From contig CAMTYL010000003.1 in the NCBI GenBank assembly GCA_947085985.1, positions 15,826 through 79,825 on the forward strand: a stretch of 64,000 nucleotides of DNA, in the 5' to 3' direction. The stretch comes from an uncultured bacterium (GTDB lineage Bacteria > Patescibacteriota > Minisyncoccia > Phycocordibacterales > Phycocordibacteraceae). The notes below the pieces were generated by a model that searched no databases, had not been told where the DNA came from, and saw only the letters and a list, made by a program, of their open reading frames with translations. The position numbers and the translations under genes are program-made. Below are positions 9,794 through 59,122 of the stretch, piece by piece. Every line of letters begins with the position of its first letter. Position 1 is the stretch's first letter.

Positions 9794-9934
9794 GTTTTCC
9801 TAAAATCACAGCATCTGCGTTGTTAAGGAGCCTCCACGGCTCCTTCTTCGTACTATAAGTACGATTCAGTCGCCGTTTCCTCCTTGCCTAGCATCTGCTG
9901 CAATTTTCCAAAAACCTCTGCTCTCTAGTGAGGA

Positions 9935-30939: not shown

Positions 30940-32283
30940 ATGCCAACGAAGAAGACGGTGAAGAAGGCTGCAAAGCCTGTAAAGAAAGCTGCACCAAAAA
31001 AAGTAACTAAGAAGGTTGCACCCAAAAAAGTAGCACCTAAGAAGGTCGTGAAGAAGGCTGCTCCAAAGAAGGTGGTAAAGAAAGCTGTAAAGGCAGTAAA
31101 AAAAGCTGTAAAGAAGACCGCGCCCAAGAAGGTTGCTGCAAAGAAAACTTCCGCAAAGAAGGAAGGAATGAAGAAGGTGGTAAAGGTTGCGTTGACCGGA
31201 GCAAAGGCAAAGGCAGCTGCGCAGAACGAGACCAAGGCCGAGCACCTTATCAAGAAGGGTAAGGAGCGTGGGTACATCACCTACTCTGAAATCCTTCGCG
31301 AGTTCCCACACATCGAGGACGACGTGTCCTTCCTCGAGGAGCTCTACGAGCGCTTCGCGGTCTCTGGTATCGATATTCTTGAGGGCGGTATGCTCGAGGA
31401 CAACGCAGACGAATACCTCGCTACCCGCAACATCAAGGGTCGCGATTCTTCGGGCTACGACTCTATTCAGATTTACCTCCGCGAGATTGGTCAGTACCCG
31501 CTCTTGACCGCCTCTGAGGAGCGCGAGCTCGCTCAGCGCATCGACGCAGGCGACGACGAGGCACGCAACATTCTTGCGCGTTCTAACCTCCGCCTCGTGG
31601 TGTCTATTGCAAAAAAGTATGTGGGACGCTCTCCAGACTTGACCCTCCTAGACCTTATTCAGGAAGGAAACCTCGGACTCTTCAAGGCCGTAGACAAGTT
31701 CGACTGGAAGAAGGGATACAAGTTCTCTACCTACGCTACCTGGTGGATTCGCCAGGCTATCACGCGCGCACTCGCCGACCAGTCCCGCACCATTCGTATT
31801 CCGGTACACATGGTGGAGACCATCGCCAAGTACAAGCAGGTGTCTCGCCGCCTAGCGCAGGCGCTTGGTCGCGACCCACAGCCAGAGGAAGTTGCTATTG
31901 AGATGGGTGTAGAGGTAGACAAGATTTACCAGATTGAGAAAATCAATCAGGACACTCTTTCTCTTGAGAACCCAATTGGTTCAGACGACGACGACCGCTC
32001 AACGCTCGGCGACTTTATTGCAGACGATAAAATTCCGTCTCCAATTCAGGAATCTTCAGAGCGCATCTTGGGTGAGCAGGTTCGTGACATTCTGGACGAC
32101 CTCTCTCCAAAGGAGCGCAAGATCCTAGAGATGCGTCATGGTTTGCTCGACGGTGTGTACCACACGCTTGAGGAGGTGGGGAAGGAGTTCGGGGTAACAC
32201 GTGAGCGTATTCGCCAAATCGAGGCGAAAGCCTTGGAGAAAATTAGAACTCATGAGAAGTCACGAAGACTCAAGAGTTACTAA
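30940..32283 (+). CDS. rpoD: primary sigma-70 factor with a ~95-aa Lys/Ala/Pro-rich histone-H1-like N-terminal tail
   Basis: Region 2 [13 protein letters not shown], region 4.2 HTH, and N-terminal KKAAPKKV repeats. Confidence 0.9.
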
Positions 32284-32465
32284 TTTTCTCCTCGCAAAAG
32301 CATCTCAGCTACGTCGTTACGGGTCCCTCGCGGGCCCGTTCGTCGTACCACTCATACGCCTCAGGTCCCGCGCTTCCCGTGCCTTGTCCCTGAGCCCTTT
32401 TGCGGGCTTTCCGGCGCTCGCGATGCTTTGCTTAGCAAATACGCTAAAAGCGATATAATAAGCAT

Positions 32466-33074
32466 ATGGACGAAATCGTATACATATTAATAAATGAAGC
32501 GATGCCGGGTTATGTAAAAATAGGTCTGACAAGTGGCTCGCTCGAGGAAAGAATTCGCTCGCTTGATACAACAGGTGTGCCACTTCCTTTTGAATGTTTC
32601 TATGCCGCAAGGGTAAATGATTGTCGGATGGTAGAAAAACTTCTGCACGATACTTTCCTTGATTATCGTGTTCGATCAAATCGCGAGTTCTTTGAAGTTT
32701 CCCCTGAGCGCGTAGTTTCTGCTATAAAGCTTGCCGAAGTTGAGAATGTAACACCGCAACGAGACTTTGTTGAATCAGAAGAAGATCAGAAGGCACTCAA
32801 TCAGGCACGCGAAAAGAGATCTGCTTTTAACTTCGGCATGGTGGATATACCGGTCGGGTCTGAGATTGTTTTTGTGAACGATGAGAATATTCGCGCGAAA
32901 GTCGTTAAATTGAGTGGCAAACGAAGTATCGAATTCAATGGGGAACTAACTAGTCCTTCAACGGCTGCGCAGAAGGTACTTGGCTACCCATACAATGTAC
33001 AGGGAACAGTATATTGGATGTATCAAGGGGAAACATTGGATGAACGTCGTCGCAGGTTGGAAAATCAAGAATAG
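32466..33074 (+). CDS. GIY-YIG/T5orf172 nuclease-family protein with a C-terminal DUF4357-like domain
   Basis: IVYILINEAMPGYVKIGLTS...LEERIRSL...REFFEV (T5orf172 core) and a C-terminal ...TSPSTAAQKVLGYPYNVQGTVYWMYQGETL. TATAAT lies 6 nt upstream of the ATG. AT-richer than the backbone. Confidence 0.75.
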   Translation: MDEIVYILINEAMPGYVKIGLTSGSLEERIRSLDTTGVPLPFECFYAARVNDCRMVEKLLHDTFLDYRVRSNREFFEVSPERVVSAIKLAEVENVTPQRDFVESEEDQKALNQAREKRSAFNFGMVDIPVGSEIVFVNDENIRAKVVKLSGKRSIEFNGELTSPSTAAQKVLGYPYNVQGTVYWMYQGETLDERRRRLENQE

Positions 33075-33984
33075 TTTTGTGGCAGTCGAAAATCTTACAG
33101 GGCTCGAAAAGCCATTACAGAAATTAGTTGAAACCGTCTCCGAAGGAGTTGGGGTTGTTGGGAATCACCTCTTTAAATTTGATGTTGCAAAAATTAAACG
33201 AATTGGAGAAGCAGAAGCAGAGATCGAAAAGGGCAAGATTATTGCACAAGCTGAAGCTCAAGAGAAAGCGGTAGAAATTTTAAGTAGGGCAGAAATAAGA
33301 TTTGCACTAGAGCAATACAACAAACAGATTAATTTAGAGAATATACTAGTTAAATCTAGAGAAGATTTGTCGGAGAAAGAGGTTACTGATGAGGCGGTAG
33401 ATAAGGATTGGACGATGCGATTCTTGGACATTGCCCAGAATGTGAGTCGAGACGAAATGCAGGATGTTCTTGCAAAGATTCTATCTGGAGAGATCCAAAA
33501 ACCAGGTAGTTATTCTTATCAGACTCTAGAGGTCGTTAAATATCTGTCACAGAGAGACTTGGAAAGGTTTTTAAAGTTCGTAGCTCTTTCTACGGAAGTA
33601 GGTGTAATAAAATTACACGGAGGAAGTAGCGAATCGCTTCAAAAATATGGACTGAATTTTGGTGATTACTTAGACTTGTCTTCAATCGGTCTATTTAATC
33701 AATCTTCAATGCTTTCTTATAACATTGAGATGAAACCGGAAGGAAAACATCCAATTAATATCGGCGGAGAATGGTTCATTCTTCAGAACGAAGATAAGGA
33801 GAACAGTAAAAAATTTAATCTTGGACTTTTTGTATTTTCAAATGTAGGTAGGGAAATACGTTCTCTCTTACTCGAGCGAGCGGAAAATGAACATGCGGGA
33901 ATATATAAAACTGATTTTATAGAGGAAACTGAAAAGAAATCCATTAAAGTTACCAAGGCTATATTCAAGACTAAAGAAGTATAG
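33040..33984 (+). CDS. DUF2806-like protein, hypothetical, overlapping the 3' end of the GIY-YIG gene
   Basis: The segment DKDWTMRFLDIAQNVSRDEMQDVLAKILSGEIQKPGSYSYQTLEVVKYL resembles the DUF2806 core (recalled from memory, not searched). Start at ATG 33040 is uncertain and could be 32980. Confidence 0.6.
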   Translation: MNVVAGWKIKNSFVAVENLTGLEKPLQKLVETVSEGVGVVGNHLFKFDVAKIKRIGEAEAEIEKGKIIAQAEAQEKAVEILSRAEIRFALEQYNKQINLENILVKSREDLSEKEVTDEAVDKDWTMRFLDIAQNVSRDEMQDVLAKILSGEIQKPGSYSYQTLEVVKYLSQRDLERFLKFVALSTEVGVIKLHGGSSESLQKYGLNFGDYLDLSSIGLFNQSSMLSYNIEMKPEGKHPINIGGEWFILQNEDKENSKKFNLGLFVFSNVGREIRSLLLERAENEHAGIYKTDFIEETEKKSIKVTKAIFKTKEV

Positions 33985-34185
33985 AAATATGCCGCAGGAG
34001 AGGCGTAGTTAAGTGGGCTCAAAGTAGGAGCCTTTATGCGCCAATATACCCCGCCCGCCGTACACTTACGTCTCCTTCGGCGGACTTCCCGCGCCCAGCG
34101 TCTAGGGCCTTTTTACTTCGCTTGCAGACAGGATCATTTAGGGTTCGCGCCTTCAATTCTGCACACTTGGTATATAATTTAGAAA

Positions 34186-34787
34186 ATGGACAAGAAAGAA
34201 ATTACAAGTCTGCTTGAAAGGCATAAGGCAAAGCGTCCTCGAACTATTGTCGTAGTGGATTTTGGCAACGTAGATAAGTGGAAAGAAAGTCTTGGGTGGA
34301 AGGTCGGTATCCAGGAACTGGCTCAGCTCATCAAGCACTTTTCCTACGGCAAAAGTTTTTACGCAGATTTTATTATGGCGAGGATTACGGGCCAGATGAA
34401 CGCTCCATAAAGCGAACGGTATGGTCGGAAAACATCCTGACCCGTGCACGCATGAATGGATTTGAACTAGTTACAAAAAGAGTCAAATATATCCATAATC
34501 AAGATTACATAACAGGATTTTTAGCCAAGTGTGAACTTGACGTTGAAATGGCCGTTGACCTGATACGAGAAAAGGATAACTACGATTCTGTTTTGCTGCT
34601 CTCAGGTGATGGAGATCTAGTGCCGGTGTTGCAGTATTTAAAACGGTTTCATTCTAAGGAATGTATAGTTATGAGTGCTCGAGGTCACGTGGCTCGTGAA
34701 GTTATAGACGCTAGAGTCTCTGGTATTATCGACGAACTCCTCTTTGCAGAAGACTTTGAATACCGACTCCGAATGCGCGTTTACTAG
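34186..34787 (+). pseudogene. NYN/LabA-like (DUF88) nuclease-domain gene disrupted by a -1 frameshift in an aaaa/ttttt homopolymer near 34380
   Basis: Frame 1 encodes IVVVDFGNVD...KHFSYGKS. Frame 3 continues FLRRFYYGEDYG...LLLSGDGDLVPVLQ. Spliced together they give a canonical NYN domain. Confidence 0.5.
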
Positions 34788-34954
34788 CGCAATCAGAAAC
34801 CCCGCCTTTCAGCGGGGTTTCGATCAAAATCCGGCAAGCCGTTGCTTACATCTGTATTATACAGAGTTTCGATGAATTTTCAATGATATCCACAGAGAAG
34901 CAATTTGACTGCCCTTGATACCTGAATTGACCCGTATGGGCTATTATTAAAGAT

Positions 34955-36865
34955 ATGAAAAAAGCCGGAGGAGGAGAGAAAATCGATGGTTTATCGGCTG
35001 ATGTTCAAGCTGAGCGTTTAGAAGCTTTGCGGCAGGTAGTTCCAGAGGCCTTTTCGGAAGGGCAATTGGACGTGGACAAACTTAAAGCTCTCTTCTCTGA
35101 GGAGGTGCAAGCAGGAGACGAAGAGGGTGAACGTTTTCGTCTTGAATGGGCAGGGAAGCACAAGGTTTTTGATGAAATCGCCAAGAGAACTTCTTGCACA
35201 CTTACTCTTGACCCAGATCGTTCATCTGAAGATTTTGAACAATCGCAAAACGTATTTATTGAAGGTGAAAACTTAGAAGTATTGCGCGCGCTCCAGAAGG
35301 CATATTTCGGGAAGGTGAAGATGATTTACATTGATCCTCCATACAATACGGGAAAGGATTTTGTGTACAACGACGACTTCCGTCAAACAGAAGCTGAGTA
35401 TTGCGAGGATACTTGTAATGTGGACGAGAATGGAAACTTGAAGCGCGCGTACAAACTGAACACTAAGGACTCAGGTCGCTATCATTCAAACTGGCTTTCG
35501 ATGATGTACCCACGTCTGTACCTTGCACGCAACCTTCTCCGTGATGATGGAGTCATTTTCGTTTCCATTGACGATAACGAAGTTCACAACTTGCGCGCAC
35601 TCATGAATGAAGTTTTTGGTGAGGAAAACTTCATCGAGATTTTTTCTTGGCAGAAGACAGAAACCCCACCAAATCTTTCAAAATTAACAAAAAAAAGTGT
35701 CGAATACGTGCTTGCATACAGGAAATCGTACAAACGCAGTACTTTAATGGGACTGAGTAAGAATAGTTCGAGTAGTAATGGTCTAATGAACCAAACTAAT
35801 TCAGAAAAGATACTTACTTTTCCTAAGGATGTCACAGAAACTGCAATAAGTGACGGGATGCTTCCAAAAGGAAGGTACGGAACAGATAGTTATACTATTG
35901 AGTTAATGGAGGACGCAGAAGTCAAAAATGGGAGGTTTGTAACGTCAGTCATTCTTAAGGGGAAGTTTAAATGGTCTCAGGCAAATCTTGAGAGAGAAAT
36001 TTTAGACGGTACGAAGATCTCAATTCGAACTACCTCACTTTCGCCATCATACGAGCGTGAAGAATATGCACCTGAAGCGCCGTGGAATTTAATCGACAGG
36101 GATTTCGGTGTCGGTACTAATGAGGCTGCAAGTGATGAGCTGGATAGTCTTTTTGGTAAGATAGAAATTTTTGACCACCCAAAACCACCTTCATTAATTC
36201 AATACCTCCTTAACTTTCTCAGGGATACTAAAGACGAGGAAGATCTAGTACTTGATTTCTTTTCAGGTTCGGGAACTACTGCTCACGCAGTAATGGCGCA
36301 AAATGCAGTAGATGGAGGTAATCGTCATTACATCTGCGTACAGATGCCTGAACAGACATCTGAAAAGAGCGAGGCACGGAAGGCAGAATTCGCAAAAATC
36401 TCCGATATTGCTATCGAGCGTATCAAGCGCGCCGCAAACAAGATCCGTAGCGAGAAACCAGATTACTCCGGTGACCTTGGTGTGCGTGTTTACTGTGTGA
36501 CTGATTCGAACTTTCCACAATGGCACGCGCGCTCGTTCGACTCTGACTCTGAGCTGGAGGAATCACTCTTTGCGCACGTGGGCCGTGTGGCTGGAGGAGA
36601 CGAGCGTGCACGCGCTACGGAAGTGCTACTGAAGATTGGTCACGACCTAAATACTTCCATTGAGCAGTCTGATGGGTTTTTGCTCGCTGATAGTTCTATT
36701 GCACTTATCCTTCGAGACGATTTTAAAGCGCAGGATTTGAATAAGGTATTCCAAACAAAGCCAAGGATAGTGATAGTACTCGAGCGCATATTTGCTAACG
36801 ACGATGAAAAGATAAACTTCGCACTTCGATGTAAAGAAGAAAAAGTAGTCTTTCAGACCGTGTAA
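34955..36865 (+). CDS. mod: Type III restriction-modification N6-adenine DNA methyltransferase (Mod)
   Basis: The DPPYNTG motif comes before FFSGSGTTAH, which is the beta-class order. 636 aa with a central variable TRD. Confidence 0.85.
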   Translation: MKKAGGGEKIDGLSADVQAERLEALRQVVPEAFSEGQLDVDKLKALFSEEVQAGDEEGERFRLEWAGKHKVFDEIAKRTSCTLTLDPDRSSEDFEQSQNVFIEGENLEVLRALQKAYFGKVKMIYIDPPYNTGKDFVYNDDFRQTEAEYCEDTCNVDENGNLKRAYKLNTKDSGRYHSNWLSMMYPRLYLARNLLRDDGVIFVSIDDNEVHNLRALMNEVFGEENFIEIFSWQKTETPPNLSKLTKKSVEYVLAYRKSYKRSTLMGLSKNSSSSNGLMNQTNSEKILTFPKDVTETAISDGMLPKGRYGTDSYTIELMEDAEVKNGRFVTSVILKGKFKWSQANLEREILDGTKISIRTTSLSPSYEREEYAPEAPWNLIDRDFGVGTNEAASDELDSLFGKIEIFDHPKPPSLIQYLLNFLRDTKDEEDLVLDFFSGSGTTAHAVMAQNAVDGGNRHYICVQMPEQTSEKSEARKAEFAKISDIAIERIKRAANKIRSEKPDYSGDLGVRVYCVTDSNFPQWHARSFDSDSELEESLFAHVGRVAGGDERARATEVLLKIGHDLNTSIEQSDGFLLADSSIALILRDDFKAQDLNKVFQTKPRIVIVLERIFANDDEKINFALRCKEEKVVFQTV

Positions 36866-36866
36866 C

Positions 36867-39524
36867 ATGAAGCTTAAATTCGATGCAGAACAGCAATTTC
36901 AGCTTGATGCAATCGAGTCTGTAGCGGATTTGTTTGTGGGGCAGCAGACCACGTCTGGCGCAGGACTCTTTGGAGAGTCAACACTTGGCATGTTTCAGAA
37001 CGAGCGTGGAATAGGTAATCTGCTCCAGATAGACGAGGGGGCGCTACTCGAGAATTTGAGGAGCGTGCAGGAAAAGAATAAACTCCCAATACAGTCGGAG
37101 CTTGCTGGAAAGCATTTCTCCATAGAAATGGAAACAGGTACAGGTAAGACGTATGTGTACTTGCGTACTATATTTGAACTCCACCAGCGTTTCGGATTTT
37201 CAAAATTTATCATTGTAGTACCAGGCAAGGCTATTCGTGAGGGTGTTTTAAACTCTCTCGAAATCACTAAGGAGCATTTGCGCAACCTGTACGGGAACCC
37301 GCCTTATAGTTTCTTTGCATATAACAGTAAGCGCCCAGCCGACTTGCGAGCATTTGCTACCTCAAATGCGCTTAGTGTGATGCTCATAAATATTGAAGCA
37401 TTTAATACCGAGGACAACATCATAAATCGTGCGAACGACTCGATAGGAGGAGTCCCAATTGAGCTTGTCCAGAAGACGCATCCAATAGTAATTATGGACG
37501 AGCCGCAAAATATGGAATCTCCAGCTGCACAGGCTGCTATTGCAGCACTTAACCCACTTTGTACCCTTCGATACTCTGCTACCCATCGAAATCTCTATAA
37601 TCAAATCTATCGACTTGGGCCTGTGGAGGCATATGATCAGGGTTTGGTAAAAAGAATTGAGGTGGCATCTGTAGCCGAAGAAGGAAGTCAGAACGACGCG
37701 TACATAAAGATACTAGATGTAAAGGCTGGAAAGAGATCAATCGTTGCTAATCTCGAGATAGAATCCAACCACAAGGGTGAGATCAAGAAAACCAAAGTTC
37801 GTTGTTCAACGTCGGGTACAGAATCTGATTTGTATGCATTGTCAGGAAACCTACCCGCTTACGATGGCTACACGCTTAGTCGCATCGATGCAGAATTGGG
37901 CGAGGTGGAGTTTGGTAATGGTGTTGTTGTGTCGAGGAATGCTGCTGTGGGGGAGATGAAGGATGAGATCATGAAGCAGCAAGTAGCGGAGACCGTACGA
38001 GAGCACTTCGAAAAAATGCTCAAGTTTGTAAGGTCTGGGCAGGACATAAAAGTGCTATCGCTCTTTTTCATAGATCGAGTGGCAAATTATCGTAACCATG
38101 AGACAGGTGCGCCAGGGAAGCTCGCCCTGTGGTTTGAAGAGGTGTACGAGGAGTTTAGGCAGTTACCGCGCTACAGTTCGCTCGTACTTCCACCGGTAAG
38201 CTCAGTTCACGACGGCTATTTCTCCAAAGACAAGAAGGGAACACTCAAGGACACGAAAGGAAGTACGGAAGAGGACCGCTCTACATACGAACGCATCATG
38301 AAAGACAAAGAGCGTCTTCTTTCTTCTGATGAACCGCTGCAGTTCATTTTCTCTCACTCTGCGCTGAAAGAGGGCTGGGACAACCCAAACGTCTTTCAAA
38401 TATGTACACTGAACGAAGCAGAATCATATGTAAAGAAGCGTCAGGAAATTGGGCGTGGCTTGCGTCTGCCAGTTAACCAGCAGGGAGATAGGATATTTGA
38501 TCGATCCATAAACACTCTCACAGTCATTGCGAACGAGAGCTATGAAACCTTTGCCCGCTCGCTTCAGCAAGAAATTGAGGAAGAAACTGGACAAGTTTTC
38601 GGAAGAGAGAGAATTGTTGATAAGCGCAAGCGAAAGCAAGTCTCACTTAGAAAGCATTGGGAATTGGATGAACACTTTATCGAGTTGTGGTCGCGAATTA
38701 ATAAGCGAACTAGATATGCGGTTACGCTGGATATGGATTTGTTTCTTGCAAAAGCAACTGAAGCCCTGTCCCATATACCTTCTCAAGAGCCACGTATACG
38801 AGTTGACGTTGCTTCGCTTAATTTTGACCAGAGCAAGGGAATCTTGACCACAAAGAGATCAGAACGAACTGGAAGAAGTTTCGGACAGTCCTTGCCCGTT
38901 CCAGATGTGCTGAGCTATATCTCGCAGCACACAGAACTGCGTACAGCAACAGTGGTCCGTCTACTGAAGGACTCAGATATTTTCGGCAAACTTCGTTCAA
39001 ACCCTCAGTACGTTATGGATCAAGCAGTAGCGGAAATAAAGCGCGTGATGCAATTCATGATTATTGACGGAATTAAGTACGAGCGAATTGCGGATTCTGA
39101 GTACGAGATGCAGATTTTCAAGGACGCAGAAATAGAGTCGTATCTTACTAATATGAGGAAAGTGGAAGTGGTCGAGAAGACTATTTATGACTTTGTGGTC
39201 TGCGATTCTAATGTCGAGATGAGTTTTGCAGAAGAGCTTGAGGCGCGAGACGAGATTGAGTTCTATATGAAGCTACCGTCAAAATTCAAGATAGAAACAC
39301 CGCTAGGCTCTTATAATCCCGACTGGGCTATCATCTTCCGTGGTGATTCCAAGCTGTACTTGGTAGCTGAGACCAAGGGAACAGATCGTGCCGACGAGCT
39401 TTCGATTTCTGAGCAATTGAAGATTAGAGCGAGCGAAAAGCACTTTACTGCAATTGGCGAAGCAATCTACCTGGCTCCTGTGCGCGACATGAGCGGTTTA
39501 TCAGAAAGGTTGAAATCGTTATGA
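36867..39524 (+). CDS. res: Type III restriction endonuclease (Res) with SF2 helicase and PD-(D/E)xK nuclease domains
   Basis: Walker A METGTGKT, motif II VIMDEPQN, and C-terminal YNPDW...VAETKG. Confidence 0.85.
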   Translation: MKLKFDAEQQFQLDAIESVADLFVGQQTTSGAGLFGESTLGMFQNERGIGNLLQIDEGALLENLRSVQEKNKLPIQSELAGKHFSIEMETGTGKTYVYLRTIFELHQRFGFSKFIIVVPGKAIREGVLNSLEITKEHLRNLYGNPPYSFFAYNSKRPADLRAFATSNALSVMLINIEAFNTEDNIINRANDSIGGVPIELVQKTHPIVIMDEPQNMESPAAQAAIAALNPLCTLRYSATHRNLYNQIYRLGPVEAYDQGLVKRIEVASVAEEGSQNDAYIKILDVKAGKRSIVANLEIESNHKGEIKKTKVRCSTSGTESDLYALSGNLPAYDGYTLSRIDAELGEVEFGNGVVVSRNAAVGEMKDEIMKQQVAETVREHFEKMLKFVRSGQDIKVLSLFFIDRVANYRNHETGAPGKLALWFEEVYEEFRQLPRYSSLVLPPVSSVHDGYFSKDKKGTLKDTKGSTEEDRSTYERIMKDKERLLSSDEPLQFIFSHSALKEGWDNPNVFQICTLNEAESYVKKRQEIGRGLRLPVNQQGDRIFDRSINTLTVIANESYETFARSLQQEIEEETGQVFGRERIVDKRKRKQVSLRKHWELDEHFIELWSRINKRTRYAVTLDMDLFLAKATEALSHIPSQEPRIRVDVASLNFDQSKGILTTKRSERTGRSFGQSLPVPDVLSYISQHTELRTATVVRLLKDSDIFGKLRSNPQYVMDQAVAEIKRVMQFMIIDGIKYERIADSEYEMQIFKDAEIESYLTNMRKVEVVEKTIYDFVVCDSNVEMSFAEELEARDEIEFYMKLPSKFKIETPLGSYNPDWAIIFRGDSKLYLVAETKGTDRADELSISEQLKIRASEKHFTAIGEAIYLAPVRDMSGLSERLKSL

Positions 39525-40363
39525 AAACTCAGTGGACGGGGATAGGGAAGGAGGGAGTGGTGCGGTACGTGGGGTGGGGGGTTGTTGGGGTTGTGGTGGT
39601 GCTTGTGGGTGTTTCGGCTTGGTGGATCTTGAGCCAGGACGAGGAGAGCTTTGCTGGCTGCAACGTGGTGGGGATTAACGTGCATGGATGCATCATGACG
39701 TACGCGCCTGCGGCGGACGAAGGCGCTTCTGGAGTACCTGAGGGATGCGACGCTATAGCGGTATCCGAGGAAATCATTGGGACCCTTGAACAGGCAAGCC
39801 AGCACAGCAACATCCGCGCTGTGCTTCTTGATATTGATTCTACGGGCGGGCAGGCGCAGGCTGCGGTTGAGATTGAAGACGCGCTTACTATGGCCGGGCT
39901 TCCAAGCGTTGCGTGGATTCGTGGGTACGGAGATTCTGCTGCGTACTGGGTAGCGAGTGCCGCGAGCACCATCATTGCTTCCGAGGAGTCTGACATTGGC
40001 AGTATTGGGGTGACCTCTTCCTACACCGACTACTCACGCCAGAACGCGCAGGACGGAATCACGTACAACAGTATCTCCACCGGCAAATACAAAGATATGG
40101 GCAATCCTGACAAGCCACTCACCGCCGAGGAGCGAGCTGCGCTTGAGAAAAGCAATCGCATAACACTCGATAACTTTATCGAAACCGTTGCGACCAACCG
40201 CGACTTGCCGATAGAGAAAGTGGAAGCGCTTGCTGACGGCTCGACCTGGCTTGGTAAAGAAGCGCTCTCGCTCGGACTTATTGATGCGCTCGGAACGTAT
40301 CCAACCGTGCTCGAGCATCTACGAGAAGTCCTCCAGGACGAACCAGTGATCTGCTGGCGATAA
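39521..40363 (+). CDS. sppA: signal peptide peptidase SppA (S49, 36K type)
   Basis: N-terminal TM helix and S49 ClpP-fold motifs (YGDSAAYWVASAAS). Confidence 0.75.
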   Translation: MKTQWTGIGKEGVVRYVGWGVVGVVVVLVGVSAWWILSQDEESFAGCNVVGINVHGCIMTYAPAADEGASGVPEGCDAIAVSEEIIGTLEQASQHSNIRAVLLDIDSTGGQAQAAVEIEDALTMAGLPSVAWIRGYGDSAAYWVASAASTIIASEESDIGSIGVTSSYTDYSRQNAQDGITYNSISTGKYKDMGNPDKPLTAEERAALEKSNRITLDNFIETVATNRDLPIEKVEALADGSTWLGKEALSLGLIDALGTYPTVLEHLREVLQDEPVICWR

Positions 40364-40602: not shown

Positions 40603-40896
40603 ATGAAGCACGAATTTTCGGCGGAGGTGTGGAAATGGCCGGGGATGGCGGCGTGGCATTTTGTGACGGTAGACGCTGCTGTGGCAGCTACGATCCGCGA
40701 GGAACGCGCGGGAGCTCCTCGTGTGGGGTGGGGGTCTATTCCGGTGAGTGTGACGGTGGGCAGTACGACGTGGAAAACATCGATATTTCCGGACAAGAAA
40801 TCGGGCTCGTATCTTTTGCCCATGAAAGCGGAAGTGCGAAAGAAGGAAGATATTTCCGGCGGTGACTCTGTGTCTATTCAACTTTCGATTCTGTAA
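40603..40896 (+). CDS. DUF1905 family protein
   Basis: MKHEFSAEVWKWPGMAAWHFVTV...STTWKTSIFPDKKSGSYLLPMKAEVRKK is typical of DUF1905. Confidence 0.55.
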   Translation: MKHEFSAEVWKWPGMAAWHFVTVDAAVAATIREERAGAPRVGWGSIPVSVTVGSTTWKTSIFPDKKSGSYLLPMKAEVRKKEDISGGDSVSIQLSIL

Positions 40897-42427: not shown

Positions 42428-42613
42428 GTGAATGTCCCCCTTTCTGTACGCACTTAAACACAAATAGATAAACGAGTCAAACCGAGAGAGTTGAAAAATG
42501 TTCTGGCGATACAGGAGTGATAGAAAGGCGAGAGCCGGGCTGGAGAATTGCCAAGGCGTCGCCTTGGCATGATGTGGAATACGAGGAGATACGGTCTTGT
42601 ATACTAAATCTGT

Positions 42614-43588
42614 ATGGCAAAGAAGAGCGTTCCAAAAAAGACCCTGAACCAGGTACTTATATATCAGGCAAAGAACGGAGCTATTGAGCTACGTGGTGAT
42701 TCTGCGCATGACACTCTTTGGGCTACCCAGGCGCAAATTGCTGAACTCTTCAATATTGAGCGTTCGGTGGCCACGAAGCATATCGGTTCCATTCTGAAGA
42801 CCCGGGAGGTAGATGAGAAAAGCAATGTGCAAAAAATGCACATTGCAAATTCTGATAAACCTGTTGCAGTTTATTCGCTCGATGTGATCCTCTCTGTAGG
42901 TTATCGATCAAACTCCGCTCGAGCTATAGATTTTAGGCGATGGGCTAGCAGAACACTTCGTGAATACCTCGTGAAGGGCTACACCATAAACCGCAAGCAG
43001 ATTGCGAAGAATCGGGAAGCTTTCCTTAAGGACGTCGAGTCTGTCCAGGCGCTTCTTCCCGAGCACATTGCGCTTGATCCGAAGGCAATACTTGAGCTTG
43101 TGAAGGTGTTCTCTAGTACCTGGATGTCACTCGATGCCTACGACAAGGATGCACTCGTTCCCGTTGGAACTTCCAAGAAGGCAATCAAGCTCAGTAGTAC
43201 TGAGTTGAACGCAGCGATAGGTAATCTACGCACCGAACTTCTAAAGAAAGGTGAGGCCACAGAGATATTCGCTCAAGAGCGTGCCACAGGCAATATTGAA
43301 GGAATAGTAGGAAACGTCATGCAGTCGCTTGGCGGGGCTCCGGTGTATCCAACTATTGAGGAGAAGGCTGCGCACCTGCTGTACTTCATGGTGAAGAACC
43401 ATCCGTTTGTGGACGGCAATAAGCGCTCGGGAGCATTCGCCTTTATCTGGTTTCTGCGAAAGACGGGAAGCAGGTCTGTAAAGAATATCAATCCAGCAGC
43501 ACTCACTGCACTCACGCTACTGATAGCCGAAAGCAAGTCAGAGAAAAAAGAGCAAATGACCGCACTCGTTACGCAGGTTCTGAGATAG
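42614..43588 (+). CDS. RhuM-like N-terminal domain fused to a Doc-type Fic domain
   Basis: The N-terminus (LIYQAKNGAIELRGDSAHDTLWATQAQIAELF) resembles RhuM. The C-terminal HPFVDGNKRSGA is the Doc variant (GNKR) of the Fic HxFx(D/E)GNGR motif. Confidence 0.8.
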   Translation: MAKKSVPKKTLNQVLIYQAKNGAIELRGDSAHDTLWATQAQIAELFNIERSVATKHIGSILKTREVDEKSNVQKMHIANSDKPVAVYSLDVILSVGYRSNSARAIDFRRWASRTLREYLVKGYTINRKQIAKNREAFLKDVESVQALLPEHIALDPKAILELVKVFSSTWMSLDAYDKDALVPVGTSKKAIKLSSTELNAAIGNLRTELLKKGEATEIFAQERATGNIEGIVGNVMQSLGGAPVYPTIEEKAAHLLYFMVKNHPFVDGNKRSGAFAFIWFLRKTGSRSVKNINPAALTALTLLIAESKSEKKEQMTALVTQVLR

Positions 43589-43661
43589 CGCACAGAGCAA
43601 TATGCCGAAAAACCGCCAGCGCTGCCTAGGGCGACTTTGCAGGACTCCTTTCAAAACCCGT

Positions 43662-43700
43662 TATATAAAAGAAAGTGGCGGCCCGGGGAGGCCGCCACTG
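43662..43700. terminator. hairpin agtggcggcc-cgggga-ggccgccact with a T-rich flank on the minus strand
   Basis: 10-bp perfect stem between convergent genes. Confidence 0.5.
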
Positions 43701-43725
43701 CATTCGTTTGTAGAGCCGACTGGCT

Positions 43726-44013
43726 CTACTCCTTTACGCCCCTCAGGATGTCGAGGCCGATTTCGAGCTTGTGGACGACGTATCCACGTTTGTTCTTGTC
43801 GCCTTCGAGGTTGTGAGCGACCGACCGCATGATGTTCTCGAGCGCGTAGCGATCGGGAGCGGCGGCGCCTGAAGAGGGCAGTGCGAGCGTCATCTGAAGC
43901 GCGTGCGCCATAGCCGCGAGCCGCAGGCGGAGCTCTTCCGGAGGTCCGTCCTCGAGTTCGCGAACATAGCGATCACGACGATCAAGAAAAGCGCGCGTAG
44001 CGAATACCGACAT
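43726..44013 (-). CDS. hypothetical protein (95 aa)
   Basis: ORF with a terminator downstream. GC-rich. No recognisable motif. Confidence 0.4.
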   Translation of the reverse strand: MSVFATRAFLDRRDRYVRELEDGPPEELRLRLAAMAHALQMTLALPSSGAAAPDRYALENIMRSVAHNLEGDKNKRGYVVHKLEIGLDILRGVKE

Positions 44014-44070
44014 CTCTGTCTCCTTGTTGGAACTGGTTCACAAACACAATAACACTTATCTATACAAAAG

Positions 44071-44526
44071 TCAAGTAGTGATCTCCTCGAAATGCTCAGA
44101 AGCGACTGGAGTAATAGAAAGACGAGAGCCGGGCTGGAGAATGACCATGCTTTTCAGTTTTGGATTTGCGCGAATGTCGGTGAGGGTGACGGGCTCCTTC
44201 AACTTCTTAACAAAAGCGATATCTACCAAATACCAGACCGGTTTCTCTTTTGTGGCGCGAGGCTCGTAGTAGTCGGAGGTTGCATCAAATTGAGTTGGGT
44301 CAGGGTAGGGAGCTGAAGCGACTTTGGCGATGCCGTATACGCCCGGTACTTTGCAGCTGGAGTGGTAGAAAAGCACCTGGTCGCCAACCCGCATTTCGTC
44401 GCGCATGTAGTTGCGGGCCAAGAAATTGCGCACGCCAGTCCAGGCGGTTTTCTTGTCCGCCTTGAAATGGTCTATCCCGTATGTCTCGGGCTCCGACTTC
44501 ATAAGCCAGTACTTTTTCTCTTTCAT
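44071..44526 (-). CDS. EVE (PUA-like) domain protein
   Basis: YWLMKSEP...VRNFLARNYMRDEMRVGDQVLFYHS is the typical EVE/DUF55 core. Confidence 0.8.
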   Translation of the reverse strand: MKEKKYWLMKSEPETYGIDHFKADKKTAWTGVRNFLARNYMRDEMRVGDQVLFYHSSCKVPGVYGIAKVASAPYPDPTQFDATSDYYEPRATKEKPVWYLVDIAFVKKLKEPVTLTDIRANPKLKSMVILQPGSRLSITPVASEHFEEITT

Positions 44527-45013: not shown

Positions 45014-45060
45014 AGACCCCGACCCCGATGCTGCACGCAGCATCGGGGTCTTGTCTATTT
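45014..45060 (+). terminator. terminator: gaccccgatgctg-cacg-cagcatcggggtc followed by ttgtctatttc
   Basis: 13-bp perfect stem plus T-rich tract. Confidence 0.65.
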
Positions 45061-45071
45061 CGTCCTGTCTC

Positions 45072-45917
45072 CTATCTAGGTCTGTGGAGATTTATATACT
45101 CCAGCCGCTCTCTAATGAGTGAGATACAAAGCTCCCTTTGCTGAGGAACCGAAACTTTCTGGCAAGCAGAAGCATCTAATCCTGCAACGGCTCTATTACT
45201 CAAAATAAATGCCACGCAACTAGACCGCAATTCTTTACTTAGAATCGGGGCACAAGTATCCGTAGATGCGTTCCGAATGCTGTAATTAAACAAACACTTG
45301 TCCCGCTCGGCTAGGAAATATGCGGCACTACAATCTTCAGTAGATCTTGGGCTGGCCCGCAAACCCTGCAAATCCTTATCCTGTAAATCGTACAGACGAG
45401 CGTAATGATTAATAAGCCCTACGGCCAGGCACAAGGAGAACATCAGTATGACTATTAAATACTCTCGTCCCTTAAACAATGACCACGATATCAGAACCAA
45501 AAATCCCAGAACCCATAGGGAGATAACGAGACGGATGCCCAGTGGCAATACGTTCGAACAGCTGTACATAAAACAAAACTCTATAAAATAGCTTGCTATG
45601 AGCACGACAGCAGAGACGGGTATTACGAGTGCGAGAAACCAAATGAATCGGCGTCGGTTCTGGCTCGTCGTTAGAAGGATGAGTAGGGCAAGGATAAGCG
45701 ACGTCCCAGACAGAAGAAACTTAGCCAAGTAAACCAGCTTCCCATCCACTATTGTGCAAATGATATGAGGTTCGGAATAAAAGAAACTACCACACAATCT
45801 GTATACAATGCTGCTCTCAAAGCTATAAACCAAGACGGAGAGAAGAAAGAATAAAAGGGCCGCAATTGCTGCAGCATGTGAAAGTAGTGTAGTGAATCTT
45901 TTGCTTATTTTTTTCAT
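45072..45917 (-). CDS. AT-rich polytopic membrane protein with a Cys-rich C-terminal soluble domain, hypothetical
   Basis: About six hydrophobic helices, then ...CSAAYF...C...C...C... Confidence 0.5.
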   Translation of the reverse strand: MKKISKRFTTLLSHAAAIAALLFFLLSVLVYSFESSIVYRLCGSFFYSEPHIICTIVDGKLVYLAKFLLSGTSLILALLILLTTSQNRRRFIWFLALVIPVSAVVLIASYFIEFCFMYSCSNVLPLGIRLVISLWVLGFLVLISWSLFKGREYLIVILMFSLCLAVGLINHYARLYDLQDKDLQGLRASPRSTEDCSAAYFLAERDKCLFNYSIRNASTDTCAPILSKELRSSCVAFILSNRAVAGLDASACQKVSVPQQRELCISLIRERLEYINLHRPR

Positions 45918-45950
45918 CCGATCGCAGAAGAGTTCCTCTCTTCTAGGGCA

Positions 45951-46418
45951 TCAACGAGCTTCACGTTTTCTTCTTGAGATAATTATTAGTCCAATAATAG
46001 AAAACAGAATCCCCAGCACAGTACTGGCGCTTCCTTTTGTTAATTCTAGAAATGGAAGATACGAGTTACTATTTTTTGGCGCATAAACAATAACTAGAAT
46101 CGATAGAGGAATCCACCACCTTGCAAAGCGCATCAGAGTCTTGAAACCCCTTTCTCCTGCAAATAAAAGACCAATTCCAAGAGGAATGGAATATAGCGAG
46201 AAGAGTAAGATTGGGTTCAGCAGAGAAATAGAATACGGGGAAAGGGGCTCATAGAACTCACAGGACCGGTCTATCCCGCAAAGCCCTAATGTCCACGTAA
46301 CTGCTTGTAACCCAAGCAAGAGCACAAGCGTCCAGGAATACTTTAGTGTGAATTTCATAGCATCAGTGAGCGAATAGGAAGCTACCAATTCGTATAATGA
46401 AATGATACACCCCAGCAA
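45951..46418 (-). CDS. AT-rich membrane protein, hypothetical
   Basis: Multiple hydrophobic helices. Overlaps the 3' end of the lipase gene by ~56 nt. Confidence 0.4.
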   Translation of the reverse strand: MLGCIISLYELVASYSLTDAMKFTLKYSWTLVLLLGLQAVTWTLGLCGIDRSCEFYEPLSPYSISLLNPILLFSLYSIPLGIGLLFAGERGFKTLMRFARWWIPLSILVIVYAPKNSNSYLPFLELTKGSASTVLGILFSIIGLIIISRRKREAR

Positions 46419-49233
46419 GCAAAGAAATAAAGATATACTTTACTTCGTAAAAAGTTAAGAGCGGAGAGGCGAGCTGAGACTTGTTTCCTTTCTGATTTTC
46501 ATCTGTGGCTCGAGTAGCCACAACAGGTGCCCCTTGAGTTGCTTCTGCTGTCTGAGCAATCTTCTTGGTTAGTTGCGGTGCACTTAGTATGCCGGGTAAG
46601 CCAAGTAGGGGTACAGCATTAACACCAATGGTCTCAGTAATAGGAGGTGGAAGCGTCCTGCTTCTGCTACTTCCTCCTGAGCTTGTGGCTACCGTAACAG
46701 CCTTGACGGGCGTTTGATAAAAACTAATAGAATTCTGCGAGACTGGCAGTACAAAATCAGCGGCCCCGTTTCCATCCGAATCCACGGAAAGGCTCGAGGC
46801 GGTTGCGAGAGATTCACCGATAGTGATTCTAGCAATGGTGCCCGCTTGTGTTGGGACGCCAGCAAGAGTGGTGCTGGCTACGATTGACCCACCAAAAACT
46901 TCCTGAATATCGAGCGAGAATGTTCCGGTAGAAACGCCGTTCATTTCTACCCTGTATTCTGGCCCAGCAGGAACGATCACGTACTGCACCTCCCCAAACT
47001 GCCCGTACACAGAGCCGGGAATGGTTTGCTCAGAACCTCCACTCGCTGTTGGTCCTGTATGGTTTCCTGAAGTGTCATACAGATTCAGAGTGAGGGGTGA
47101 GTGGAGCATGAACCGCAAAAGTTTATTTGGAGTACTGCTCGTGGGTTGCTCAGTGTATACATTCTTGGGTACGTTAGAATCCCCGCCGAGTATGGCTTCA
47201 AGAAGATCTTGCAATTCTTTTACAGCAAGGATGCTTCCGTGGTCCTTATTAATCGGGCCAAATTCATAAGGAATTAAGTCCAACCAGTATTTCCGTACAT
47301 TTTCAGTGGAAGTGCTAATCATGAGGGCACTTGCAATTGGAACCACCCCATCACCATCCTGAACAAACGTGGGACGGTACTCTTTCTTGCATACTGAAAG
47401 AATGCATAGTTCATAGAATTCAATCCCAGAGACCGTGTCTAAACCCCACCCTCCCACTTGGTACAGCGTAACTCCTGCAGGAGGTACCCACGCATCAAGA
47501 GAGTCATGCGTTCTTTTTGCGTACGTAAGCAAAAGGTCGTTCAGAACATTTGGTTTAAAAAACAACACAGCTTCAGGCTTAACGCGCCCATTGTCTTCAG
47601 CGAGTGAAAACGCACGAAGCTCGTCCCATGTGTCTATTACATTGCCGTACTTAGCACGCTCCTCCGCATATGTGCTCGCTGCAGTAAATCGGACAACAGC
47701 GCGTTCCTGGTCAAGAAGGTCATCGAAGTATCGCTGCGAGGGTAGTAGGTGGTATCCCATGGGGGAGTTCTCGGCGAACATGCGAGCAGTCGAAACATGA
47801 ACAACAAATGGGAACCAGGAGGGGAGCGACTCTTTGTACCCAAATAGGAGTGCTCCCAATGCCTGAGGCGCGCCGCTCTGCGGAACGCCGACAAATATCA
47901 CCTTATCAATGAGTCTGGCAGTTTCCGCATCTCCAAGCTTCATTAGTAGCTTCTTTGCTACGAGTCCGCCGTTGCTGTGTGCAATTATAGTGACCTTATG
48001 TGTTGGCGAGCTTGACGCAAGTTCGAGCAAATTCAGTTCAAGGTAGGGAACATTCGCCGTTTCCTCAAAGTAAATGTTTCCCTCTCGCACTGCTCCTTTG
48101 TTGACGATATCGTCGAGTGAGAGACGCCAGTCATATGATGCAATACGCCATTCTTTTATCATCTCGGTAGACTGAAGCTCGTTCATTGAGCGTATAAAGG
48201 AACCATAGATTTCAGAGAAACCGGCGATCCTTTCTATGATGTCTCCTGACTTTGTGTGTATGCCAGGATTGGCACTCACTCCTGCAGAAGTAAGAAAGAG
48301 TTTCTCCACATCTTGGTCACTTCCAGGCTCCCATACTTTATTACCGACGGCGTCGTACAACCGGCTGCCTTTGATACCGGGGAGGAAGAGGACGTTGGAG
48401 ACTTGCGGCGTAGTGGTCGCAACACCGGGGGTTGTTGTTGCGGTGGTGGTAGCAAACCCGCCCGAGCAACCATCAACGCCACAAAGCTGGAATGCGAATC
48501 CGCCAGGAAGTGGATTTTCGTACGTACCTGTGAGCGACGTGCCAGGGTTGTTGCTTGAGCCCGCGACACTCATGTAGTTTGCGCCTAGGAATACCGCACC
48601 AAGGGCCGTTCCGGGTGGAATACCTTCGCCGTAGAAAACGAAGTCGCAATACTCACCAACGGTGCGCGTTGCGTACGGATTCGTATCGAAACTTGAAGCG
48701 AAGTCAGGTGTAAAAACAGAAAGGCCATATGTTCCGCCCCAACTAAGATTGCTACATGTTGTGTCAGCTCCTGCACGCTTTACTCGAGCAACGGTAGTGG
48801 TGCCAGTGGTAGTCCAGAATCCCTCAGGCGAAACGGTTGGCGGGTTACCAATCTCTGTGTAGCCACCTGGAAAGTATGCATAGTTTCCAGGTGGGTAATA
48901 GACACCAATGCCCCAAACTTCGTCCGCGAGCGAATTATCAAACAGCACGCCCGTAGGAAGTAGTGCTGGCTCATCTGAACTTAAACGTACTACTGGCTCC
49001 TCTGGAGTGCTGGTAGCGACGGTTTCTGCGGGAAGGAGAGCCTCTGACGAGCTACTCGCCAGAGGCTCGTCTGCTGGAGCTGGTTCCTCGGGCGTCGTAG
49101 TCTCTTCGTTAATACCTTCAAGTGCTGCGATAGCGTTCTCGTAAGCGTACGAGTAGGGGATAGAAAGGGGCGCGTAAAAGACGCCCGCGATAAGGAGGGT
49201 GGAAGTAAGTGCCCTCAGCACCTTCGTCCCCAT
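46363..49233 (-). CDS. secreted LCAT/PGAP1-like alpha/beta-hydrolase (lipase/acyltransferase), ~957 aa with Thr-rich linkers and extra C-terminal domains
   Basis: Signal peptide MGTKVLRALTSTLLIAGVFYAPLSIPYSYA. ASYDWRLS (LCAT family YDWR motif). Nucleophile elbow IIAHSNGG. TGGTATCCT lies 8 nt upstream of the ATG at 49233. Confidence 0.7.
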   Translation of the reverse strand: MGTKVLRALTSTLLIAGVFYAPLSIPYSYAYENAIAALEGINEETTTPEEPAPADEPLASSSSEALLPAETVATSTPEEPVVRLSSDEPALLPTGVLFDNSLADEVWGIGVYYPPGNYAYFPGGYTEIGNPPTVSPEGFWTTTGTTTVARVKRAGADTTCSNLSWGGTYGLSVFTPDFASSFDTNPYATRTVGEYCDFVFYGEGIPPGTALGAVFLGANYMSVAGSSNNPGTSLTGTYENPLPGGFAFQLCGVDGCSGGFATTTATTTPGVATTTPQVSNVLFLPGIKGSRLYDAVGNKVWEPGSDQDVEKLFLTSAGVSANPGIHTKSGDIIERIAGFSEIYGSFIRSMNELQSTEMIKEWRIASYDWRLSLDDIVNKGAVREGNIYFEETANVPYLELNLLELASSSPTHKVTIIAHSNGGLVAKKLLMKLGDAETARLIDKVIFVGVPQSGAPQALGALLFGYKESLPSWFPFVVHVSTARMFAENSPMGYHLLPSQRYFDDLLDQERAVVRFTAASTYAEERAKYGNVIDTWDELRAFSLAEDNGRVKPEAVLFFKPNVLNDLLLTYAKRTHDSLDAWVPPAGVTLYQVGGWGLDTVSGIEFYELCILSVCKKEYRPTFVQDGDGVVPIASALMISTSTENVRKYWLDLIPYEFGPINKDHGSILAVKELQDLLEAILGGDSNVPKNVYTEQPTSSTPNKLLRFMLHSPLTLNLYDTSGNHTGPTASGGSEQTIPGSVYGQFGEVQYVIVPAGPEYRVEMNGVSTGTFSLDIQEVFGGSIVASTTLAGVPTQAGTIARITIGESLATASSLSVDSDGNGAADFVLPVSQNSISFYQTPVKAVTVATSSGGSSRSRTLPPPITETIGVNAVPLLGLPGILSAPQLTKKIAQTAEATQGAPVVATRATDENQKGNKSQLASPLLTFYEVKYIFISLLAGVYHFIIRIGSFLFAH

Positions 49234-58987: not shown

Positions 58988-59122
58988 AGCCTATATGCCT
59001 AACATCTTTATCTGCTGCGTTGCGGGTCCCGACTCCTCACTGCGTCGTACTGCTAGTACGCCTCCGTTCCTCGTCTTCCCGCGCCTTGCATATAAGAGAT
59101 GTGTAGACATATAGGAAGAGGA

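Follow-up and report, generated by a model that had tools for sequence, protein, structure and literature searches.

A hypervariable restriction-modification hotspot behind rpoD in a Patescibacteria genome and its probable cargo of independently acquired defence-related units

Patescibacteria of the candidate phyla radiation (CPR) have tiny genomes, and restriction-modification (R-M) is considered their main known defence. In Type III R-M systems, Mod hemimethylates an asymmetric site and Res cuts DNA with unmethylated sites after ATP-dependent communication along the DNA. Two smaller kinds of genes are relevant here as well: the family PDC-S57, which PADLOC lists as a defence candidate, and Belisama, an anti-phage system encoded by one DUF2806 gene in the chromosomal integron of V. 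cholerae, which has been validated, causes unrecoverable lysis at high multiplicity of infection and is toxic when over-expressed (bioRxiv 10.1101/2024.07.02.601686). Relatives of all three are found side by side in a 64,000-nucleotide (nt) stretch of an uncultured bacterium of the Phycocordibacteraceae (assembly GCA_947085985.1, contig CAMTYL010000003.1, positions 15,826 to 79,825), referred to as the window throughout. The genes in question occupy 32466-39524 of the window, directly behind rpoD; all five are on the plus strand, and reading the window gave the same coordinates as first described:

32466-33074, plus strand: gene A, a 202-amino-acid (aa) T5orf172/MUG113-type GIY-YIG protein (PF10544, E 3.7e-17)
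33079-33984, plus strand: gene B, a DUF2806 protein (GTG start, 301 aa; alternative ATG at 33040, 314 aa; PF10987, E 7.8e-36)
34186-34787, plus strand: NYN/LabA-like nuclease gene, most simply a pseudogene (open reading frames (ORFs) 34186-34410 and 34278-34787; 1-nt deletion, A5 to A4, at 34351-34354)
34955-36865, plus strand: Mod, a beta-class N6/N4 DNA methyltransferase (PADLOC MTase_III, E 2.5e-169; Pfam N6_N4_Mtase, PF01555, E 1.3e-33)
36867-39524, plus strand: Res, a superfamily 2 (SF2) helicase with C-terminal PD-(D/E)xK endonuclease (PADLOC REase_III, E 3.8e-267; ResIII; RE_endonuc, PF19778, E 3.4e-33)

An initial annotation had described this region as an AT-rich, horizontally acquired defence island, and profile searches agreed with every one of its domain calls (T5orf172, DUF2806, NYN, Mod and Res), with the Pfam E-values for T5orf172 and DUF2806 as listed above. 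The composition of the region fits this description: its GC content is 0.437, whereas the remainder of the window has 0.536 and the directly adjoining sequence 0.55-0.56, and even the most GC-rich 500-nt segment within it does not exceed 0.476; the roughly 40% given at first should read about 44%. The horizontal origin is supported by the comparison with relatives. In the closest of them (L110; rpoD 99% identical at the aa level, core 92-95% at the nt level), synteny with the window breaks at 32423 and resumes at 40605, and the variable segment 32424-40604 thus includes sppA; L110 carries two D12 Type II methyltransferases and an unknown 467-aa protein at this site, and no sppA. In two further relatives (L111 and L112; rpoD 97%) the cargo consists of an unknown 287-aa protein and a LexA/S24-C5 methyltransferase fusion with sppA behind it, and in another one (L113; rpoD 93%) of small unknown ORFs. 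A fifth locus (L001; sppA 91% at the aa level) contains A and B, followed by a DrmD-like SNF2 helicase (E 8e-205) and by a different Type III pair, whose Mod (E 1.7e-131) is 32% identical to that of the window and whose Res has an E-value of 2.8e-128. As each relative has a different cargo behind rpoD, the post-rpoD site is a hypervariable R-M/defence hotspot with exchangeable cargo.

Similar to defence islands and hotspots with exchangeable R-M cargo in general, the site has conserved flanks (rpoB-rpoC-dnaG-rpoD on the left; on the right, behind sppA, DUF1905, HD_4 and EVE genes) and an AT-rich, R-M-dominated content that differs between relatives. Unlike typical hotspots, it is without a flanking integrase, tRNA or long direct repeats. 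No tRNA, tmRNA or Rfam family was found across the whole window, and a tRNA-type integration site is therefore missing; the search for direct or inverted repeats flanking the island returned short matches at chance level. Its boundary is instead a lineage-specific structured element located behind genes, which is described below. The locus thus reveals a fixed place right after rpoD at which CPR relatives swap R-M cargo.

We consider it fairly probable that the cargo of the window is made up of three independently acquired units, in which single-gene defence candidates are stacked with a dead NYN gene and a Type III system. The first unit would be a 1.7-kb cassette (32414-34123) with its own promoter and two single-gene defence candidates, A and B, stacked in one operon; the second would be the dead NYN nuclease gene, and the third the intact Type III system. 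A might by itself cut DNA that enters the cell. Because its C-terminal domain is similar to RAMA/DUF4357, which is found in fusions with GmrSD and McrB-type Type IV enzymes as well, A may act as a restriction-like enzyme. B would act like Belisama, causing abortive infection through a toxicity that kills or lyses infected cells, and Mod-Res would restrict unmethylated DNA. For both A and B we infer anti-phage activity and autonomy. A, B and Mod-Res all fall into known kinds (PDC-S57, DUF2806/Belisama-type and Type III R-M, respectively); the locus represents no new kind of system, and it supplies two small, concrete genes with which the function of PDC-S57 and DUF2806 can be tested.

The separate history of the first unit is apparent from the comparison with L001, and it concerns the following features:

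32296-32423, plus strand: GC-rich structured post-rpoD element (nhmmer E 2.9e-22; alignment, covariation)
32432-32459, plus strand: promoter-like site TTAGCA-16-TATAAT (10/12 consensus matches; such sites are no more numerous in the region than in shuffled sequence)
34041-34122, plus strand: 5'-truncated copy of the structured element (nhmmer E 7e-21), at the right end of the A+B cassette (32414-34123)
39521-40363, plus strand: sppA (peptidase S49; Pfam Peptidase_S49, E 4.8e-37; GC 0.56, host-like)

The window and L001 share 32414-34123, that is 1710 nt comprising the promoter-like site, A, B and the truncated structured element, at 98.5% nt identity compared to 89% for sppA. At third codon positions the divergence between the two genomes is 2.5% for A and 1.6% for B but 23.1% for sppA, and is thus about tenfold lower for the cassette. 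A joint acquisition of A and B with the Type III system had been suggested; in L001, however, this cassette precedes a different R-M system. Near-identity in front of different R-M genes, together with a third-codon divergence far below that of sppA, indicates that cassette and R-M cargo moved separately. On its left side, the variable region is delimited by the post-rpoD element, as synteny with L110 stops at 32423 and the cassette shared with L001 begins at 32414. The truncated copy behind B is 97% identical to the copy behind B in L001, 82% to the post-rpoD copy of L001 and 62% to the post-rpoD copy of the window itself. It is thus closer to the post-rpoD element of L001 than to that of its own genome, from which we infer that the cassette reached the window genome via an L001-like lineage, independent of the Type III genes.

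Whether A and B belong together functionally is a separate question. They had been proposed to form a distinct, uncharacterised two-gene system in which a 315-aa B overlaps A. The overlap holds for one of two candidate starts of B only: from the ATG at 33040 (314 aa) B overlaps A by 35 nt, whereas from the GTG at 33079 it begins 4 nt past the A stop without any overlap. The overlap therefore hinges on the start chosen, and the genes are at most 4 nt apart either way. The GTG start fits the length of homologues (approximately 295 aa) and the nt match to a solitary homologue (L002). We searched 80 metagenome loci with A homologues (63-95% identity) using a profile of B homologues, and conversely looked for A homologues within the available flanks of 16 genome loci with DUF2806 relatives and of L002. 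A DUF2806 gene was found in none of the 80 A loci, and an A homologue in none of the 17 further DUF2806 loci; the pair is thus not syntenic elsewhere. Altogether, 17 of 18 B homologue loci lack an A homologue, and their neighbouring genes are heterogeneous. Even near homologues stand alone: A homologues with 94% (L025) and 91% identity (L027/L028) occur without B, and a B homologue with 83% identity (L002) occurs without A. In addition, nt matches to such solitary relatives end at the gene borders, with A alone covered at 32428-33073 and B alone at 33076-33985. The pair is known only from L001 and from the window genome, which six other metagenome assemblies contain at 100% identity. Nor are the genes uncatalogued, as each is already covered singly, A by PADLOC PDC-S57 and B by the family that includes Belisama. 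Judged from these gene neighbourhoods, A and B are single genes, each mobile without the other, which share one cassette here and do not constitute a conserved two-gene system.

An alternative is that A and B represent a true two-gene system that was assembled recently in this Parcubacteria lineage and moves as one, with A sensing or cutting DNA and B aborting the infection. The tight spacing or overlap of the genes, the single promoter-like site without a predicted terminator between them, the high identity of the 1710-nt unit in L001 relative to the flanking core gene, and its position between copies of one structured element would all agree with this. However, the restriction of the pair to two genomes, the absence of the partner from all other loci searched and the solitary near homologues are difficult to reconcile with such a system. 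Moreover, Belisama functions as a single gene, and PADLOC lists PDC-S57 in its PDC-S series, which by PADLOC naming denotes single-gene candidates. We therefore regard a recently assembled two-gene system as improbable.

The reading of A and B as stacked single genes leads to the question of what each of them might do. B matches PF10987 with 124.4-124.9 bits (cutoff 24.5) over profile positions 2-216 of 221; some 70 residues at its N-terminus are predicted as a helical extension, modelled with low confidence. DUF2806 homologues of B are present as solitary genes on 309 plasmids, most of them conjugative, and in one phage, Sinorhizobium phage phi3LM21; those inspected were from an IncX4 plasmid, a Legionella plasmid and the Sinorhizobium phage. 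B thus resembles Belisama in its Pfam family and in being a small, usually solitary gene on mobile or variable DNA, a likeness drawn at the level of the family. It differs from Belisama in its origin from Patescibacteria and in being part of a hotspot cassette rather than an integron cassette; neither attC nor IntI was seen, though no search aimed at them was made. Taken together, B is probably an abortive-infection-type effector of Belisama's Pfam family, and it places a DUF2806 gene well outside the Proteobacteria.

A matches PDC-S57 end to end: its residues 2-200 align with positions 5-208 of the 212 in profile PDLC05041 (236 bits, E 7.7e-71), and a second profile of this family, PDLC05043, gives E 1.3e-46. 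The putative catalytic residues Y6, Y16, R29, R31 and E74 are invariant in 22 A homologues, and H61 is nearly so. An AlphaFold2 model of A has a moderate mean confidence (pLDDT, the predicted local distance difference test score, of 68.6), and its best Foldseek matches in the PDB are Slx1 GIY-YIG structures (probability 0.94-0.96, but E ~0.03 (0.035)); sequence searches of the PDB with A and B returned nothing meaningful. The C-terminus forms a small beta-rich, RAMA/DUF4357-like domain. The DUF4357-like tail assigned to A at first is backed by matches below threshold only (19 bits for RAMA, with E 0.0012 and a cutoff of 35; 15.5 bits for DUF4357, with E 0.017 and a cutoff of 38). DUF4357 has been reported as fused to GmrSD and is listed among McrB-associated domains alongside GIY-YIG/T5orf172 (PMC4619093, PMC11090510).

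The A family comprises 2216 proteins at E <= 0.001, and its members are frequently found next to R-M genes. R-M genes make up at least 15 of the 43 genes directly 3' of A homologues, a count made with no formal null model (by Pfam: N6_N4_Mtase 8, Eco57I/N6_Mtase 3, HSDR_N 2, EcoRI methylase 1, D12 1), and 9 of these R-M genes match Type III methyltransferase models. Families of the window Mod and Res are present in 16 of the 80 A loci, on either side of A, which can also sit just 3' of Res or Mod. Full-length A homologues on Sphingomonas and Prevotella plasmids adjoin R-M genes, and the homologue with 91% identity in L027/L028 precedes a Type I-like HsdR-HsdM/S operon by 5 nt. Based on these neighbourhoods, A would be an R-M-associated nuclease whose role is independent of the type of the neighbouring R-M system. 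It shares with PDC-S57 the full-length profile match, the T5orf172 N-terminal domain and the R-M/defence neighbourhood, and differs from other members in being stacked with a DUF2806 gene, an arrangement absent from the 80 other loci. The PDC-S57 T5orf172 nuclease thus appears as a very conserved gene that travels with R-M operons of several types. The further possibility that this T5orf172/RAMA-like protein is an unrecognised accessory or mobilising part of CPR R-M operons, especially those of Type III, or that A and B form a functional module, has in our estimation only a small chance of being correct.

The locus with the Type I-like operon merits a separate description. L027:8001-16467 (GCA_964639285.1) encodes the A homologue, HsdR, a fused HsdM/Eco57I/S protein, HsdS and two unknown genes, followed by a serine recombinase on the opposite strand; the operon is possibly a mobile R-M unit.

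Several observations weigh against an interpretation of A and B as autonomous single-gene defence candidates. The two genes are 4 nt apart or overlapping and were moved together at least once, and a lineage-specific functional coupling between them is conceivable. B scores below the cutoff of TIGR03899, the Vibrio/Shewanella-type model (105 versus 155.65 bits), aligning with profile positions 7-126 of 250 only, and is merely 26-31% identical to proteobacterial DUF2806 proteins; in addition, the DUF2806 neighbourhoods in other genomes are mostly housekeeping, with few R-M genes. For A, PDC-S57 is a computational candidate, and a full-text literature search for "PDC-S57" gave no paper. The A family is also unusually conserved for a defence gene, with 63-95% identity across many Patescibacteria lineages and a mean column identity of 78%, and this strong conservation would equally fit a selfish or accessory role.

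In such a role, A would resemble a free-standing GIY-YIG homing endonuclease. As a selfish or accessory nuclease, it could mark or drive the exchange of the R-M cassettes with which it travels, with B and the Type III system providing the defence. Like I-TevI/Seg-type homing endonucleases and phage T5orf172 genes, A appears from its model to have an N-terminal catalytic domain of GIY-YIG type that a linker joins to a small DNA-binding domain at the C-terminus. It is conserved while its neighbours vary among Type I, II and III R-M genes, which lie 5' or 3' of it with spacers of 4-20 nt, and its position in the window is at one end of the variable region. T5orf172 nucleases are reported to mark boundaries of genetic exchange in phages (PMC10448857). 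In contrast to homing endonucleases, however, full-length A homologues are chromosomal or plasmid-borne and located beside R-M genes, not in phages, and the C-terminus of A is RAMA/DUF4357-like. A of the window and its L025 homologue are 94% identical as proteins and 81% at the nt level, which points to long-term purifying selection rather than recent homing, and PADLOC nominates the family as a defence candidate. A purely selfish or accessory nuclease is thus unlikely, though a more serious contender than the two-gene system discussed above. A phage origin of full-length A was considered but is not supported: 201 phage records match its N-terminal domain only, and none covers >= 80% of A. Consistent with this, A is matched in PHROGs through the N-terminal domain only, and B is without any phage family.

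The second of the three proposed units, the NYN gene, had been described as broken by a frameshift in a homopolymer, and this break is real. Its reading frame is not intact over the whole domain. The frame break separates the N-terminal segment with the catalytic Asp (IVVVDFGNV) from the rest of the NYN domain, and insertion of one base in the A4 run (34351-34354) yields a 200-aa protein with an NYN match across the junction (profile positions 1-137 of 145; 55.1 bits compared to 48.3 bits for the second ORF alone). Intact homologues of about 200 aa read YGKKFLRRFYYG at this place, indicating that one A was lost from an A5 run. A sequencing or assembly error could be dismissed, as the break is identical in the six other metagenome assemblies, which derive from different sequencing runs. 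The gene is therefore most simply regarded as a putative pseudogene.

It might nevertheless be kept alive through programmed -1 frameshifting, transcriptional slippage at the A4/T5 runs or phase variation. The break lies in adjoining homopolymers (AAAAGTTTTT, 34351-34360), slippage by -1 on UUU would bring the two parts back into frame, the broken sequence is fixed in the six other assemblies, and a homologue (P0351) likewise appears to be truncated at its N-terminus. Yet the intact homologues carry an unbroken GKKFLRRFYYG, the slip site does not conform to the canonical X XXY YYZ heptamer, and all seven copies are of equal length without any heterogeneity. Runs of 4-5 nt are, moreover, too short for efficient phase variation. 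Survival of the gene by any of these routes is thus highly improbable, and a dead gene remains our preferred reading. The homologue P0351 is a 165-aa NYN protein with 52% identity, whose N-terminus aligns with the out-of-frame part of the second ORF in the window and not with the authentic N-terminus of NYN proteins; repeated frameshifts or truncations in different genomes may therefore have affected this NYN family.

The third unit had been described as a complete Type III R-M system, and motifs, gene order and Type III profile scores all bear this out. Mod contains DPPY (motif IV) at residue 127, ahead of FSGSG (motif I) at 436, and Res contains GTGKT at 91, DEPQ at 211 and PD...ETK at 818. 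The mod gene is located directly upstream of res on the same strand, and Res starts 1 nt past the mod stop. This organization corresponds to that of EcoP15I and StyLTI, in which mod also precedes res, Mod is of the beta class (DPPY, then FxGxG) and Res joins a helicase to a PD-(D/E)xK domain. The window system differs from these in its divergent scores and in the overlap of the res stop with the start of the host gene sppA. Res is below the cutoff of the NCBIfam equivalog model NF012027 (327 versus 564 bits) and thus belongs to a divergent Type III member, not to an EcoP15I/StyLTI orthologue. As far as its sequence can tell, the system looks complete and intact.

The gene sppA flanks the AT-rich cargo and is present in L001 and L111 and absent from L110 and L113; since its presence varies among relatives, it belongs to the variable segment. 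At 39521-39524 the res stop overlaps the sppA start (ATGA), leaving zero intergenic space, and expression of sppA may depend on read-through from the island.

Within the cassette, the spacing between the TATAAT box and the start codon of A is 6 nt. TATAAT boxes end 6-7 nt before the ATG both of A (gatataataagcatATG, 32454-32468) and of the NYN gene (tatataatttagaaaATG, 34169-34188), and such proximity suggests leaderless transcripts, or transcripts with a very short leader, for the cassette genes.

The structured elements bordering the cassette belong to a family of GC-rich sequences of about 100 nt. All copies are on the plus strand; those in the window lie at 32296-32423, 34041-34122 (partial), 2884-2983, 9812-9921 and 59010-59103, and further copies are found at L001:1-120, L001:1810-1891, L110:11361-11467 and L110:7000-7102. 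Where the upstream gene could be identified, the elements begin approximately 15-60 nt after a plus-strand stop codon; four window copies follow rpoD, B and two other ORFs, and the L110 copies follow rpoC and rpoD. The predicted fold is a long hairpin whose apical stem (CGTAC/GTACG) is conserved, compensatory changes affect 8 of 19 predicted pairs among 5 copies, and a T run follows some of the copies. The element has no match in Rfam and is probably a lineage-specific terminator or a repetitive extragenic palindromic (REP)-like element. An interpretation as integron attC site was rejected, as copies also follow housekeeping genes (L110 rpoD and rpoC homologues) and other plus-strand ORFs of the window; no GTTRRRY core was seen on reading the element sequence.

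Among the cargo of the relatives, the 546-aa protein encoded at L111:12393-14033 (minus strand) combines a LexA DNA-binding domain, an S24 peptidase and a C5 DNA methyltransferase (PADLOC MTase_II, E 5e-126). The combination is unusual and could put methylation under SOS-type control.

The product of rpoD has its best named relatives in metagenome-assembled genomes of Parcubacteria/Paceibacterota, for example Parcubacteria bacterium C7867-004 with 93% identity. Its N-terminus (30940-31200) consists of a Lys/Ala/Pro/Val-rich, histone-H1-like low-complexity extension of about 75 residues on a primary sigma factor, in which the identity to homologues varies (query coverage 78-100%).

Two other stretches of the window differ from L110. 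A second insertion (42549-44104) is located between the HD_4 and EVE genes and contains a 324-aa gene (42614-43588) with a RhuM-family N-terminal region fused to Fic/DOC (PF13310, E 1.9e-17; PF02661, E 1.5e-11) as well as a 94-aa ORF; elsewhere, RhuM genes adjoin homologues of A and of DUF2806. A third variable stretch (45014-48355) includes two minus-strand ORFs of 280 and 154 aa (45075-45917 and 45954-46418) with a GC content of 0.42-0.44 and no Pfam match, which lie upstream of a 961-aa LCAT-domain protein whose N-terminal part is also unlike that of L110.

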